From assembly GCA_038108555.1 (NCBI GenBank), contig JAYNIA010000077.1:1-8576 (forward strand): a stretch of DNA of 8,576 nt, in the 5' to 3' direction. How positions within the stretch are numbered: position 1 is the stretch's first letter; each line of letters opens with the position of its first letter. Shown here piece after piece: positions 1-6,000 of the stretch. The DNA comes from Nitrospinota bacterium. Its GTDB lineage: Bacteria; Nitrospinota; Nitrospinia; Nitrospinales; VA-1. Position numbers: made by a program.

Positions 1-3000
1 AACCTTATAATAAACTTAAAACAGGGAATTTATACATAGTGGAATTCCCATTGTAAAACCTTGCTTTTTATTGGCAAACCTTATTTTAAACAACTAAAAA
101 ACACGATATACCGGCTAAGTATCACCTTGAAACCTAATTGGGTCAAGTAAATATTTCGCACTTGGGCAAATAGCCCTTTCCTCATAACACTTATCTAATA
201 CAAAGCAATAAAATTCAAATATTTAAAAGCATACGGGGGAAATTAGAAAAAAAGAAGTTTTTACCATAAGGAAATTTCCAGCGGCATTTTGGTTCAGGCA
301 ACAACTTTTCTTTATTTATAATTTTGATTACCTGGTTCTGCTCTTGAATCGGCTGTTCATTCCATTTTGAGGAATCAATGACTACGTTACAACTTTCGAC
401 AGAGGAACAGGTGCAACAGGTAGGTAAGAAGAAATTGCAGGGATATGGCCCAGGCAAGAAAATTTAGGCTTTGGCCCGGCAGGGATAACAATCCCAAAAC
501 TGCGATGAGAAACAAGGGAAAGTCAATTCCATTCCATCTCCAAATTTTAAGAAGTGTGCTTACCTTATTAAAATATTCATCCCGTTGTTGCGGATCGAGA
601 ACGGAATCGGTCGGGGCTTCTCTCATTCCAAGGTCGGAAAGCGTTTCCCATTTCCTGCGGAATATAAGTTGTTGAGCCTGCATATAGTAAAAATAAATAC
701 TAAGGACTATGGATGACTTGTTTTTTAATTTTTCAAAAGTATTTTGAATTTCCCTTTCTATTCCGTCAAAACCTTTCAACACCATCGTTCCGAATGTTTG
801 CTTGCAATAATCGTAGGAAATGGCTCGCAAAATGGTAAAGACAGCAATTACAATTGTGGAGCAGGTAAATTGCGGATAACCGGAAACTATTCCAAAAACC
901 ACAGCCAGATAGGCAAAATACCCTGCGATCCCATCTATGAGCCGCCCCCAATCACTGGCCATATTTTTTGCCCGAGCAAGTTGGCCATCCACACAATCTA
1001 AAATCAGGGTAAACTCCAGAAGAATCCCTCCCGCCAGGCTGGAAAGCCAATTTCCATGGCTAAACGCATAACCCGAGGCAAACCCGATTAAAACAGAAAA
1101 GTAGGTTACCTGGTTTGGAGTGACAAAAGTATTTTTCAGGACCTCTACAATTTTTTTCGCGATGGGATCATGAAGATAAATATTAATAGGTTCCGCAAGA
1201 TCCTTCAAAGCATGTTCCATCTTTTCTGTCATTACCTACAACCATCTTTCTTTCATATACCAGTCGAGAGTACAGGCCAACCCCTCTTCCAGTTTAAACT
1301 CAGGTTTAAAATCGAAGTCTTTAAAAAATTTTTCCGAAGATGCGGTCCAACAACTTTGCTTGAGATCCATCATCCTCTGACGATCAAACAGTGCGGCATT
1401 AGAGCTGAACATTGCCAGGGCTTCAAAAAACATTGCGACAGGAACCAAAAGACTTTCAGATACTTTTAAAACTTTCACCGAGATGTTCATTTTTTCTGCC
1501 GCCCTATTTGCCACGTCTTCCCAGGAATAAATTTCACCATCCGTCACAAAATATATTTTCCCATTTGAGGCTTTCGGGGCAACCACTTCCACCATAGCTC
1601 GAACCAGGTCTGAGACATAAACCAGCGAAAGTAATTTTTGAGATTTACCAATTTGCAATGTCCAGCCTTTTCTTACTAATTTAAAAAATGTAAAAAGGTT
1701 TTCCTCACGAGGACCATAAACTACCGGCGGACGTATGATTTTGATCGGCAATGACTCGGAGTATTTTAGAGCTATTTCTTCTCCCGACTTTTTTGACTTC
1801 CCGTAATATGTCACAGGATTCAATGGGGATGCCTCATCTATCTGTTTACCCTCTTCACAAGGCCCTGCTGCAGCAAGGCTGCTTAAATGGACGATCCCCT
1901 GAAGGGTATCTTTATAATCCAAACATTGCTCATACAAAGTTTGGCAAACACGGGAATTAACATCAAAATAATCTTTGCGGCTTTTTGCTTTTGTCAAACC
2001 GGCACAATGAAAAATATAATTTAATCCCGGAAGGCTGGGGATCTTAAAATCAGGTTCCGCAAGGTCAACAAAATGGAATTGGATTTTGGGTGAGGAAAGC
2101 CATCTTAAATTAGACGATTTGCGAACAAGGCAATGAACATTACAATCCATTGACAACAGAAGGTCCACCAAATGACTTCCAATAAAGCCATTGGCTCCCG
2201 TTATCAATACGGTTTTTCCGCTAAGGTGAGAATTTTCTTTCATAGATGCGGTGTCTTTTATAAATGCTTCCCCCTATTCTTACAATAGGTTCCAAAATAT
2301 CTGTATTGTCTTCCAGCACCCATGACATATCGCATGTTTTGATATTTTGAGCGTTAAAATTTTTATACATATCGTAATACATATAAGCATCGATGCCGCG
2401 TCGGCGAAATTTTTTCTTTATACCAAGCGTCAACACACGATAAGAATTTATTTTATTTTTTTTCCAGAGAAACTTTGCCCAACCAAATGGAAATAGTTTG
2501 CCGTCCAGATCCTTCAATATCTGATTGACATCCGGGAGGGCTAGAGAAAATCCCACCGGTTCCCCCTTGACCTCTGCAATCAAACAATATTTCGGATTCA
2601 CAATCGCCTTCATTTCACCGGCCGCAAACGCAAACTCTTTTTGCGTCATGGGAACAAATCCCCAATTATTACCCCAGGAGGAATTATAAATATCCCAAAT
2701 TATTCTTAATTCCTCTTTGAATCTTGCCAGGTTCAAAGGGCGTAATTTAAACCGCCCTCTTTCTTCCAGTTTACGTGCGGCTTTTTGAAGATATTCCGGA
2801 ATTTCCTTCAATTCCAGCCTTAAGGAAACCAAATCCTTCGACTTTTTAAAACCCCAATTTTCGAAATGCCTTTCATAATAATCGGGGTTGTAAGGAATTC
2901 CCAGCATGGGGGGAAGGTCAAAGCCCTCGACCAGCAATCCACATTCGTGGTTGGTTGACAAATTCAAAGGGCCAATGAGCCTATCAAACCCTTTTTGATC

Positions 3001-6000
3001 GCACCAGTTTTTTGCCTGATCAAATAATAGTCGCGACACCTCCTCATTATCAACAGATTCGAACATTCCCATAATGCCCGTATTCTTTATACAGTGTTCC
3101 TGATAATTTTGATCGTGGACCAGGGCAATTCGCCCCAGAGATTCTCCTTTTTCATCTTCGGCTAAAAACAGTTGGACATCAGCGCCTTCGAAAAAGGGGT
3201 TGTTTTGTCGATTAAGGAATTTCTTTCTCTCTGATATCAGGGGGGGAACCCAACAAGGATAATCTTGATACACCTTCCAGGGGAGTCGGATGAATCGGTC
3301 AAGATCAGAAGAGCTTTTAACCTCAGAAATTTTGAGGTTCATTATTCCTTGGAAATGATACCCAACTTTGTTCCCAGTTTTTTAAACGACCCTAATACTT
3401 TTTCAAGGTCTTTCTGGGTATGGGCCGAAGTATAACTGGTCCTGATCATTGCGTTAAGGGGGGGAACCACCGGAGAAACAGCGACGCCGGCGAAAACGCC
3501 TTCGTCAAAAAGGAGACGGTTCAAATAAAGGGTTAAAGCTTCTTCACCGATTTTTATTGGGACAATGGGAATGGAGTTATTGTTGACTTGAAAACCCATA
3601 TCAAAAAACCCTCTTTTGATAAATGCGGTGTTTTCTCGTAAACGGTTAATTCTTTCGGGTTCATTGATCATAATGTTCAAACCCTCCGTTACCCCCGCAA
3701 CCGATGCCGGTGGCAAAGCAGCCGTAAAAATAAATGCTGAAGCCTTATGCCGGATATATTCCGTTATTTTTGATTTGGCGGAAATAAAACCGCCAATCGA
3801 ACCCAAACTCTTGGAAAAGGTTCCCATATACAAATCAATTTCGTTTTCCAGATTGAAATAGTTGGCGACACCTTTTCCCCGGTCCCCCATAACTCCCAGC
3901 CCGTGGGCCTCATCAATCATCACGGTTGCCCCATAGTCTCTCGCCAGCTTAACTATGACCGGCAGGTTGGCAATATCACCACTCATACTGAAAACCGTGT
4001 CGGTAATAATTATCTTACCTTCTACATCCGAATGTTTTTTCAAACAATATTCCAAATGGTCCATATCGTTATGCTGGTAACGAATCGTTTTCCCAGGGGC
4101 GACAGCACATCCTTCATAAATACTGGCATGATTTTCACGATCAGAAAATGCGACGTCTTTCCTTCCCAGCAAACAGGAAATGGTTCCCTGATTAGCCTGG
4201 AATCCTGTAGACATGACGATCGTGTCTTCCCGGTTTAAAAAGGAAGAAATTTCATGTTCCAGTTTTTTGTGCAGATTAAAAGTCCCATTTAGAAAACGAC
4301 TTCCGGTACAGCCAATTCCAAATTTATCGAGAGCCAACCTGGCAGCTTCGATCACACGGGGTTCCTGTGAAAGCCCCAGGTAATTATTTGTTGAGACCGA
4401 GATTGCCTCCTTGCCATCAATAACCACCTTACTGCCATCTATTTCCTGAATTTCTTTGAAATAAGGGTAGATCCCCAATTCTTTTGCTTGATCTGGGGCG
4501 AGATATCCAAAACATTTTGCAAGAAGGCCTTTTTCTTTACTACTGGGAGGGCGGAGATGCGAATTCTCGAAATCAAATTTCTCTTTTAATAAAGAAACAA
4601 TTTTGTTTCTTTTTAAATGAGCGGGACCCATATCCTGATTTTCTAATCCCTTGAGCAGCGAAAAAGGTTTTGTCATATTTTGGACCTTTATATTAATTAT
4701 CGATTAAGCTTTACTTACCAGCGTGCTTCCATAAATTGACGAGTGCAGGCCATAATCCAGATTGAACCGTTTGCCCATATAAAGAATCTTTCCCCTGATT
4801 ATTTAAAATACGGTTGTGCGCTTCTCCCAATGCATGGTAGGGAAGGTCTGGAAACAGGTGATGAGTCGCATGAAACCTTAAACCCACAGGAGCCCATAAC
4901 GGGGTAATCCATCGGTTTCCCGGATTATTAATTGAATCCAGCATTTGTTCGGTAAAACTCAGTTCACCTTCCTCTGCATTTCTATAATGATGGGCTGCCA
5001 GGGTCCGAATCGAATTGACCACGAATACAGAGGCCCCTAAACAATACCACATGAATAAAGCCTTTGCAGGCATTATTTTCAAGAAAATCAATACCATAAA
5101 GATCATTCCATATAATCCTGTCAAAATCTCTTGTATTTCCCAACCTTCATTATTTGCAAACGAAGACGCATTACGCTGGTAATTCAAATCAATATTTAAG
5201 GACGACATTTTAAACATCACAAACTTTCTTAGCTTGGGGATCAAGAAAGACAGCGGCATTAATACTACAAAACGAAACAGAAAAATGAGTGGAACAAAAA
5301 TTGAAAAACCTACGTGGAATAAAATCAGCCACCTTCCTTTGGAAGCAAAAGGGAAGTATTCTCCATCTCTTTCTGTTCCGTAGTAATTTTGTTTATGGTG
5401 GTCAAAATGCACGCTCTGATACAAAAATGTTGGAACCATAAGGGGAAAACCACACAGGATGTTCCACACTTTTTGAAATATTAAAAATGAACCTTTTTTA
5501 AAATGAGCAATCTCATGAATAAATAATGCCGCTCTGTATATCGCAAGAACTGCCACAAAAAAAAACATTGCTTGCCATAAAGAAAATGGAGGAACGATAA
5601 TGGTTGCAACAAACGCTCCCCAACCCAAAACGATACTTCCCAGGAAATCACCCCAATAGATCCAGGGGTTGGGTTTATATAAATCCTTTACCAACTCCCT
5701 GACCTTAGTAATGTGAAATTCCTGCCCGGAGCTTTCCAGATTCAAACTATTCAAATTGAAACCCCACCCATTTGGAGAAAAATACTTTTCCTCATTATTT
5801 TATCGTTTTTCTGCACAACTCAAACAAACCGTGCTCTCTGGCATTAACATGATTCGTCCATGCGGAATGGGATTTGAACAAACCACACAAACCCCAAATT
5901 CCGGAAGATTTATTTTTCCTAATGCTTTTTCAAGCCTGGCCAATTTGGTTTTGGCAGAATTCAAAGAAGCTTCGCTTATTCCCTGGCTACTAATCGCTTC

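Follow-up and report, generated by a model that had tools for sequence, protein, structure and literature searches.

A conserved ceramide-lipid operon of marine Nitrospinales ends in a CDP-alcohol phosphotransferase without the fourth motif aspartate and may yield ceramide aminoethylphosphonate

Ceramide synthesis in Caulobacter crescentus is described with three backbone enzymes, Spt, bCerS and CerR (PMC9393093, PMC12275187, PMC11324152), of which the CerR-type reductase is periplasmic (PMC11087976). The CpgA/CpgD locus of this organism adds a CDP-alcohol phosphotransferase, for which transfer from a CDP-activated polar donor onto the sphingolipid has been proposed (PMC12275187, PMC11324152). 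In Bacteroides thetaiotaomicron, the PI-DHC route is assigned to BT_1522-1526, and CDP-inositol has already been proposed as a lipid head donor for the 'alternative' cluster of Prevotella and B. vulgatus (PMC9246714). Phosphonolipid clusters of the Pnt and 'Burkholderiales_CDP-OH' type have also been described (PMC6697681, PMC8942020), and a bacterial phosphono-sphingolipid is already known, since a 1-hydroxy-AEP (2-aminoethylphosphonate) sphingolipid occurs in Bacteriovorax stolpii (PMC8942020).

The window analysed here is a stretch of 8,576 nucleotides from a Nitrospinota bacterium (contig JAYNIA010000077.1). Five co-directional, tightly spaced ORFs were found on the minus strand between positions 387 and 5754, with the transferase gene last, as the earlier note had claimed. 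The features are:

4711..5754, minus strand: membrane di-iron fatty-acid desaturase/hydroxylase (CerH-like or sphingolipid desaturase), accessory gene, 347 aa, PF00487 (E 7e-25)
3342..4676, minus strand: serine palmitoyltransferase (Spt), Bacteroidota-type alpha-oxoamine synthase, 444 aa, PF00155
2221..3342, minus strand: bCerS/YghO-type GNAT N-acyltransferase (putative ceramide synthase), 373 aa, homologous to YghO
1236..2243, minus strand: extended SDR, CerR-like ketoreductase, 335 aa, PF01370 (E 4e-30)
387..1232, minus strand: CDP-alcohol phosphotransferase of a subfamily of about 290 aa, presumed head-group transferase, 281 aa, PF01066 (E 3.5e-11)
921..998, minus strand: CDP-alcohol phosphotransferase signature D79-D82-G83-A86-R87-G96-D100, followed by Gly104 (codon 921-923), from sequence and alignments

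From the desaturase to the transferase gene, a gap of 34 nt is followed by overlaps of 1 nt and 23 nt and a final gap of 3 nt. Four of the five genes are backed by the Pfam families listed; the bCerS-like gene has no Pfam match. In all 31 related genome loci, the transferase gene is preceded by the SDR and bCerS-like genes; Spt comes before it in 29 of them and the desaturase gene in 27, all misses being contig ends, which indicates that the gene order is not due to chance. Orthologues with 70-79% identity come from loci titled Nitrospinaceae, Nitrospinales, Nitrospinota or Nitrospina.

Comparison of the predicted proteins provides good support for the claim that the operon encodes ceramide synthesis. 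The best solved relatives of Spt are SPTs (E 7e-104), with a score of 351 bits compared to 203 bits for cysteate acyltransferase. Its best NCBIfam model is the Bacteroidota model NF047600, although the curated equivalog cut-offs are not reached (448/640 bits for NF047600, 360/500 for NF047599 and 299/670 for NF047603). BioF-like and Kbl-like genes are encoded separately, on contigs C9 and C76. The bCerS-like protein aligns with E. coli YghO at 35.6% identity along 99% of its length and is 35% identical to the matching gene of a Caulobacter-type cluster of Roseomonas, and it falls into GNAT clusters in the ESM Atlas at 0.98. The SDR carries GxxGxxG and YxxxK motifs, and no hydrophobic N-terminal stretch is visible in its sequence; it is this genome's best match for four of four SDRs from other ceramide-type clusters, but these matches are weak (22-29% identity). 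An FA_desaturase fold and three His boxes (residues 80, 116 and 295) characterise the desaturase-family protein, which may be either a sphingolipid desaturase or a hydroxylase like the ceramide hydroxylase CerH. Spt would condense serine with an acyl thioester, the YghO-type GNAT would N-acylate the product, the SDR would reduce the 3-keto group and, in some genera, the di-iron enzyme would hydroxylate or desaturate a chain. Given the homologies and the strict gene coupling, we regard these backbone steps as highly probable.

The locus shares the three backbone enzyme types with Caulobacter, as well as a CDP-alcohol phosphotransferase in a sphingolipid locus. The term 'Caulobacter-type' is loose, however: the locus differs from the Caulobacter system, as outlined in the papers cited above, in its Spt, for which a Bacteroidota model gives the top score. 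The window lacks genes for ACP, acyl-ACP synthetase, ceramide kinase and an LptF/G paralogue, and matches to PF00781 elsewhere in this genome are all sub-threshold. CpgA is described as acting on an already phosphorylated ceramide. The transporter partner of the Nitrospinales operon is an MMPL protein, and the locus holds no donor gene.

Occurrence was compared in a full set of 102 genomes of the order and a high-quality set of 51 Nitrospinales genomes (34 operon holders and 17 non-holders). In the high-quality set, the transferase and type-1 bCerS co-occur exactly (34/34 holders, 0/17 non-holders), and none of the 102 genomes has a transferase orthologue without type-1 bCerS. The di-iron desaturase-family gene is present in 17/34 holders and 0/17 non-holders. 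This widespread group of marine bacteria carries a conserved ceramide-lipid gene set.

The transferase model (pLDDT 94) matches Archaeoglobus AF2299 best (PDB 4O6M/4Q7C; Z 19.7, E 7e-14), followed by IPCT-DIPPS (4MND; Z 17.6, E 2e-7). In contrast to both, it lacks a fused NTP-transferase domain and carries about 90 additional residues; the identity is 22-26%. The family fold and the first seven signature residues are present, including three motif Asp as well as the Arg and Gly residues; when aligned with AF2299 and DIPPS, the protein has Gly104 in place of the fourth Asp. That Asp is the presumed catalytic base, and an Asp-to-Asn exchange nearly abolishes PIP synthase activity (PMC4634129). 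Gly occupies the position in 24/24 aligned close orthologues and in 15/19 more distant ones, while four orthologues of one genus with the same operon position keep the Asp. An Arg of the JM helix, kept by 98% of outgroup rows, is lost as well. Values of dN/dS of about 0.07-0.23 in eight pairs point to purifying selection. Scores against curated PIP synthase, DIPP synthase and BT_1523 models are far from the cut-offs (58/180, 44/580, 34/170 and 29/350 bits). The tree separates the window transferase clade from inositol-linked clades and resolves no sister group with a known donor. Judged by 65 subfamily loci from outside Nitrospina, 36 of which have a LicC-like neighbour, the subfamily travels with head-group cytidylyltransferases. 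Together with the fold, this company supports the proposed direction of the last step, from a CDP-activated head group to a lipid alcohol.

In 18 of 20 further loci, an MMPL gene lies directly downstream of the transferase gene, which usually overlaps its start where the two are adjacent; it is upstream in one locus, and a contig end cuts the other. In the lineage of this genome, the MMPL gene has moved away from the operon, to contig C6. An orthologue was found in holder G075, but in none of four non-holders tested. Neither the Asp-to-Gly change nor the MMPL partner had been recorded in the earlier note.

We propose that the 281-aa transferase would move a CMP-activated head group onto the C1 hydroxyl of ceramide with release of CMP; this step appears somewhat better supported than not, and would be rated higher if the fourth Asp were not missing. 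The donor would be drawn from a genome-wide pool, most likely as CMP-2-aminoethylphosphonate (CMP-AEP) formed by the order's core PEP mutase (PepM), a split decarboxylase, an AEP transaminase and a PntC/LicC-type cytidylyltransferase, and a dedicated MMPL/RND transporter would export the lipid. PEP mutase and the beta subunit of a phosphonopyruvate-decarboxylase-like (Ppd-like) enzyme were each found in 33/34 high-quality holders, and inositol genes are often absent; ceramide aminoethylphosphonate is therefore our best guess for the product of this phosphono- or phospho-sphingolipid operon, tentative as it is. The earlier note had named a phosphonate as an alternative, which fits the gene distribution better than inositol. 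The same genes also occur in non-holders (15/17 and 16/17, respectively), so that donor availability is shown rather than a link to the operon, and our best guess draws on that availability only.

As in the Pnt and 'Burkholderiales_CDP-OH' clusters, in the form reported, this genome has PepM with a fused NTP-transferase domain; Ppd-like, AEP-transaminase-like and PntC-like candidates are encoded as well. Differing from these clusters, the AEP genes are scattered over separate housekeeping loci, the decarboxylase is split and the lipid transferase lies inside the ceramide operon; PepM comes within 17-25 kb of the operon solely in five genomes that belong to one family. PepM passes the TIGR02320 cut-off and has the EDKxxxxxNS motif, while the motif of its fused domain is degenerate. 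The Ppd/ComDE-like pair stays under both family cut-offs, scoring about equally as sulfopyruvate decarboxylase. The candidate AEP transaminase reaches 345 bits (cut-off 361), and AEP-transaminase-like genes are present in 5/5 single-contig holders, three of them above the cut-off. An enzyme on contig C2 is 43.7% identical to the PntC domain of a phosphonate cluster, but this closest PntC-like gene occurs in only 13/34 holders; the LicC-like cytidylyltransferase on contig C41 was found in 33/34. At locus L160, a member of the subfamily stands at the head of a complete AEP cluster. Transferases with an intact motif are encoded elsewhere in 10/10 genomes examined and could consume CMP-AEP instead.

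The earlier note had proposed an inositol phosphoceramide formed by direct transfer from CDP-inositol, supplied by MIPS and IPCT on contig C5. MIPS is indeed present in this genome, and so is a true IPCT-like enzyme, with IPCTs as its closest solved relatives; both are common in the genus (12/16 and 14/16). The second-best fold match, IPCT-DIPPS, is in line with this proposal; the broad subfamily of about 300 aa takes in the transferases of the Bacteroidota 'alternative inositol cluster', and MIPS occurs in 3/65 of the subfamily loci. However, 14/34 holders, three of them single-contig genomes, lack both genes and 15/34 have both; three single-contig holders (G078, G020 and G037) are without MIPS under two Pfam models. 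With 19/34 holders and 5/17 non-holders, MIPS is no commoner than expected of a patchy gene. The C5 genes exist but do not form one co-directional unit (MIPS, minus; 407-aa transferase, plus; IPCT, minus; 209-aa transferase, minus), and their two transferases have intact motifs. Considering also the separate clade and the distant family cut-offs, the operon transferase probably does not add inositol, and the proposed direct transfer is improbable. The 'alternative' cluster of Prevotella and B. vulgatus differs, according to the account in PMC9246714, in that its transferase has MIPS and the NTP transferase as cluster neighbours; PI is the product proposed for it, with diacylglycerol as acceptor, and the head would then reach ceramide through a second enzyme. 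In Nitrospinales, neither of these genes is linked to the operon. Where a Nitrospinales inositol-ceramide-synthase-like gene is present, it adjoins a PIP-synthase-like gene, a pair of the PI-dependent Bacteroides type. In this genome (91.85% complete), a relative's PI-DHC-synthase-like protein has no match, and its PIPS-like protein a best match of only E 6e-4.

A ceramide that is neutral or capped by another enzyme is a less likely reading, in which the transferase-like protein catalyses no standard transfer; it would instead bind ceramide for delivery to the neighbouring MMPL exporter, or act as the partner of some other transferase. The conserved Gly, the lost JM-helix Arg, the gene's place immediately before MMPL and the lack of a single donor pathway that tracks the operon agree with this, but the rest of the motif is retained, one genus keeps the Asp, MMPL has moved off in this lineage, and the lineage-specific polar residues E73, R136, D156 and H274 could supply a base. 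Ceramide phosphoethanolamine or phosphocholine, formed Kennedy-style from CDP-ethanolamine or CDP-choline via the core C41 enzyme, is unlikely. It would suit the commonest subfamily context, a HisC/CobD-like PLP enzyme (32/65 loci, compared to 1/65 for PepM) and a LicC-like transferase (36/65), and at locus L106 this module is found together with Spt-bCerS-SDR. However, the metagenome sample had been ordered by similarity to an outgroup protein, a PLP enzyme orthologue is absent here (best matches 26-28% identity), and no choline/ethanolamine kinase exceeds the cut-off in any of five genomes tested. We consider it equally unlikely that the transferase caps diacylglycerol, giving a glycerolipid needed in an order that lacks PgsA, with its operon place reflecting co-regulation. 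Canonical PgsA is found in only 2/102 genomes, diacylglycerol has been suggested as the substrate of related enzymes (PMC9246714), and a subfamily member (L126) adjoins an SDR and an unclassified membrane protein, which might relay the head group. Against this, the transferase is gained and lost exactly with bCerS, non-holders without it also lack PgsA, and a PI-DHC-synthase-like relay enzyme was not found in this genome. Another amide lipid derived from an amino acid, e.g. a 1-deoxy or sulfono analogue, is the least probable product: Spt is below its equivalog cut-off, in this genus the upstream region holds a gene for an alanine/glycine-type symporter, and Spt is reported to accept alanine or glycine (PMC10191378), but its score favours SPTs and a head-group transferase would imply a C1 hydroxyl.

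Taken together, it is possible, though doubtful, that most Nitrospinales make ceramide 2-aminoethylphosphonate, with the 281-aa protein as its synthase despite the missing, supposedly essential Asp and with a dedicated MMPL exporter. In the literature searched, no sphingolipid was found described from this marine lineage, for which the operon provides a testable gene set. It also puts forward an enzyme that may carry out the final step in the synthesis of bacterial phosphonolipids, a field in which tailoring steps and products are called uncharacterised in PMC6697681 and PMC8942020. A transferase clade that lacks the fourth Asp under purifying selection puts the mechanism accepted for catalysis in this family to the test. 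If only plain ceramide is made, one more lineage is added to a known pathway. Membranes of Nitrospinales are probably unusual whatever the head group, given that PEP mutase belongs to the core genes of the order and that hardly any of its genomes encode canonical PgsA. If the aminoethylphosphonate ceramide is real, major marine nitrite oxidisers would be a source of membrane-bound phosphonate, and the lipid would be a lineage-specific biomarker.

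Five minus-strand open reading frames take up positions 387–5754; two of their junctions are gaps (34 and 3 nt) and the other two are overlaps (1 and 23 nt). In 5' to 3' order they encode a desaturase (Pfam FA_desaturase), a serine palmitoyltransferase (Spt; Aminotran_1_2), a protein resembling bacterial ceramide synthase (bCerS; no Pfam family), an SDR (Epimerase) and a CDP-alcohol phosphotransferase (CDP-OH_P_transf), hereafter the transferase. The window is contig C77 in full, from a genome of 2.9 Mb with a completeness of 91.85%. With the transferase as query, 31 genome loci were found, the titles of which all name Nitrospinota lineages. 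Upstream of the transferase, the SDR and bCerS-like genes were present in all 31 loci; Spt was found in 29 and the desaturase in 27, and contig ends account for the misses. The five-gene ceramide operon claimed in the earlier note is real, and larger than reported there.

Scans for promoters and terminators gave chance levels only (20 vs. 17.7 and 13 vs. 10.6, respectively). On the same strand, 5' of the operon (5800–8372, minus), lie genes for a DksA/TraR zinc-finger protein, a class I SAM methyltransferase and an alanine/glycine-type symporter; the methyltransferase precedes the operon in 25 of the 31 loci, the symporter in ten. Multiheme cytochromes and methyltransferases encoded just downstream in the genus were rejected as operon members and are neighbours only.

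Comparison of Spt, an AOS enzyme, with solved structures yielded serine palmitoyltransferases as best matches (351 bits); scores were lower for Kbl (254), cysteate acyltransferase (203) and BioF (194). Its top-scoring family model is the Bacteroidota SPT, with a score under that model's cut-off. BioF-like and Kbl-like genes are encoded elsewhere in the genome, the latter next to a threonine-dehydrogenase-like gene, as judged by sequence reading. The 373-aa bCerS-like protein shares 35.6% identity with E. coli YghO along its length, and no sequence match was found for it among solved structures. It is 35% identical to its counterpart in a Roseomonas plasmid cluster, which also contains ACP, Spt, kinase, transferase and LptF/G genes. 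When SDRs from such clusters were used as queries, the window SDR was the best match in the genome for four out of four (22–29% identity). The desaturase has three His boxes, was found in 17 of 34 genomes with a transferase orthologue and is an accessory gene of the operon. We are confident that the backbone genes of the operon make ceramide.

In the literature, 'Nitrospin' is absent from the main text of a Black Sea survey (PMC11334938) and its preprint; the survey's supplement lists 38 phyla, and Nitrospinota may already be among them. It is also absent from the main text of PMC11324152, PMC6697681 and PMC8942020; the 2022 paper defining bCerS and CerR may already list the lineage. According to a passage of PMC10667739, monoglycosyl ceramides correlate with the abundance of several taxa, Nitrospinota among them. 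Searches joining bacterial ceramide synthase with CDP-alcohol phosphotransferase found no literature.

Genes were searched one by one over 120 genomes of the phylum or 102 of the order, and cross-tabulated in 51 genomes of the order with completeness of at least 90% and contamination of at most 5%; these genomes are related, and the counts are not independent. A transferase orthologue occurs in 34 of the 51 (holders). Type-1 bCerS was found in 34/34 holders vs. 0/17 non-holders, and Spt in 33/34 vs. 5/17. More distant genera supplied 20 further loci, two of them from the same genome; here an MMPL/RND protein of ~800 aa is encoded 3' of the transferase in 18 and 5' of the desaturase in one, and is cut off in one. 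Its orthologue in the genome studied here (57–64% identity) lies away from the operon, on contig C6 (61314–63704); none was found in the four non-holders tested. Co-occurrence and MMPL adjacency therefore define a conserved unit of Spt, bCerS, SDR, transferase and MMPL. Sequence reading places a lysylphosphatidylglycerol-synthase-like membrane protein and a methyltransferase within 5 kb of the C6 MMPL gene.

The signature of the transferase family is D-x-x-D-G-x-x-A-R...G-x-x-x-D-x-x-x-D, the last position of which is Gly104 in the window protein (codon 921–923). Glycine occupies this site in 24 of 24 rows of an alignment of the window with 23 of the 31 loci. Among 19 orthologues that are more distant, 15 also have Gly, and the four that keep Asp belong to one genus. 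We also compiled a metagenome set, made up of the best 80 of 572 loci by similarity to an outgroup protein; 65 of the 80 are non-Nitrospina. Here Asp was found in 66 of 80; the other 14, every one Nitrospina-type, have Gly. As a passage of PMC4634129 states, an Asp-to-Asn exchange at this site nearly abolishes the activity of PIP synthase. The predicted structure of the transferase (pLDDT 94) has an intact fold (Z 19.7, rmsd 2.4 Å over 189 residues), and dN/dS is ~0.07–0.23 (8 pairs). Either another residue serves as base, with the lineage-specific E73, R136, D156 and H274 as candidates, or the role of the protein, next to MMPL, is not a catalytic one. Transfer of a head group onto ceramide by the transferase is probable.

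The earlier note had proposed inositol, supplied as CDP-inositol by the MIPS and IPCT genes of contig C5, as this head group. The C5 module exists, its IPCT gene being IPCT-like, and the transferase subfamily takes in enzymes of the Bacteroidota alternative cluster. According to a passage of PMC9246714, these are proposed to use CDP-inositol, but on diacylglycerol. However, the module already contains two transferases with intact motif, and the window clade (support 99) stands apart from both these and the alternative-cluster enzymes in a tree. MIPS was found in 19 of 34 holders and IPCT in 16 (presence threshold E 1e-25); both occur in 15 and neither in 14. A second MIPS model, positive in 5 of 14 control genomes, found nothing in the single-contig genomes G078, G020, G037 and G091, nor in G030. 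A divergent IPCT under the threshold, if present, would be without its substrate source. Inositol as the general head group is thus not borne out and is, in our view, decidedly unlikely.

Two further observations concern MIPS. Genera g4 and g5 have a MIPS-IPCT domain fusion of ~630 aa (L176:6976–8868, L193:7253–9154), and the window-type MIPS is broken or partial in genomes G053, G073 and G074, all of which carry a second MIPS type.

A second bCerS type (34–40% identity) was observed in loci L055–L063 and L179–L181 (genomes G044, G043, G052, G007 and others). In seven of nine loci it is divergent from a type I polyketide synthase of ~2,560 aa. PIP-synthase-like, PI-dihydroceramide-synthase-like and glycosyltransferase genes lie nearby in the loci examined, which points to a separate lipid, of glycosyl-inositol type and with a polyketide chain. 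In G044 and G007 the PIP-synthase-like and PI-dihydroceramide-synthase-like genes, both below family cut-offs, lie beside it, and the latter has no match in the genome studied here (91.85% complete). Inositol ceramide, where this order seems to produce it, follows a PI-dependent design. In genera g5 and g6, the usual locus is reduced to Spt and SDR (L188–L192). Of 102 Nitrospinales genomes, only two yielded canonical PgsA (TIGR00560), each an incomplete MAG, vs. 14 of 18 in the other orders of the phylum; phosphatidylglycerol is either absent from Nitrospinales or the product of another transferase. On a plasmid of the Gram-positive Rubrobacter radiotolerans (L197:6698–12290), genes of the Spt-like, bCerS-like and SDR types precede one of the LTA-synthase family, a possible source of a phosphoglycerol head.

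Neighbours in the 65 non-Nitrospina loci among the best 80 of 572 were LicC-like (36), HisC/CobD-like (32), MIPS (3), TagD-like (2) and PEP mutase (1) genes, with none of these types in reach in 19. These mixed neighbours indicate that the subfamily handles several different CMP-activated head groups; they support the direction of the reaction, but no one donor. The tree comprises 86 rows; of the 80 metagenome rows, 16 with Gly were left out or had genome rows standing in for them, and rows without a label or with LicC+PLP were thinned. It resolved no sister group of the window clade. The nearest outgroup proteins bear the names Spirochaetes, Polyangiales or simply 'bacterium'. Two outgroup transferases, P0164 and P0176, carry an N-terminal methyltransferase-like domain, and head-group methylation is therefore a possibility. 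Metagenome contig L106 (1–5658) encodes, in a single run, Spt, bCerS, SDR, a HisC/CobD-like PLP enzyme, a subfamily transferase and a LicC-like enzyme; it is a candidate for a bacterial operon that makes ceramide-phosphoethanolamine. Searches joining ceramide phosphoethanolamine, CDP-ethanolamine and Bacteroides found no literature.

PEP mutase scored over the cut-off in 85 of 120 genomes of the phylum, including 33/34 holders and 15/17 non-holders, and is a core gene of the order. It is flanked by rseP-like and proS-like genes in all six genomes examined. In the genome studied here its location is:

L204:7786–9519 (contig C14:10785–12518), fusion of PEP mutase with a degenerate NTP-transferase domain; orthologues L198–L203

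A split pair resembling phosphonopyruvate decarboxylase was found in 33/34 holders and 16/17 non-holders, next to an MsbA-like transporter in five of six loci, and a gene resembling 2-aminoethylphosphonate (AEP) transaminase in five of five single-contig holders. Candidate activating enzymes are a LicC-like protein on contig C41 (33/34 holders), a PntC-like protein on C2 (13/34) and the degenerate domain fused to PEP mutase. On these counts, CMP-AEP is the sole candidate donor with a pathway available in nearly all holders. Availability of the pathway is necessary for this donor but not sufficient, and the genes also occur in non-holders. A possible rival consumer is a second CDP-alcohol phosphotransferase of ~300 aa with intact motif, encoded in ten of ten genomes examined (L069, L072–L074, L222–L227), nearly always adjoining a B12-binding radical SAM gene. 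In the genome studied here the latter (C34:3–950) runs off the contig start, so the second transferase probably lies in an assembly gap.

The C41 LicC-like gene was rejected as operon partner because it belongs to a fixed thiG-TPR-cyclase-like locus and is present in 11/17 non-holders. In this conserved locus beside thiG (L034:2791–4679; C41:14790–16678), it follows a gene for a 322-aa squalene-cyclase-like single domain, which is absent from two of six relatives examined.

Literature joining Nitrospin with phosphonate and pepM yielded nothing beyond the term in a cited reference. A sphingolipid with 1-hydroxy-AEP is known from Bacteriovorax stolpii, as stated in a passage of PMC8942020. The order looks to have phosphonate synthesis among its core traits. 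We know of no synthase for ceramide-AEP, although no search was aimed at one. AEP is our best single guess for the head group, and a tentative one.
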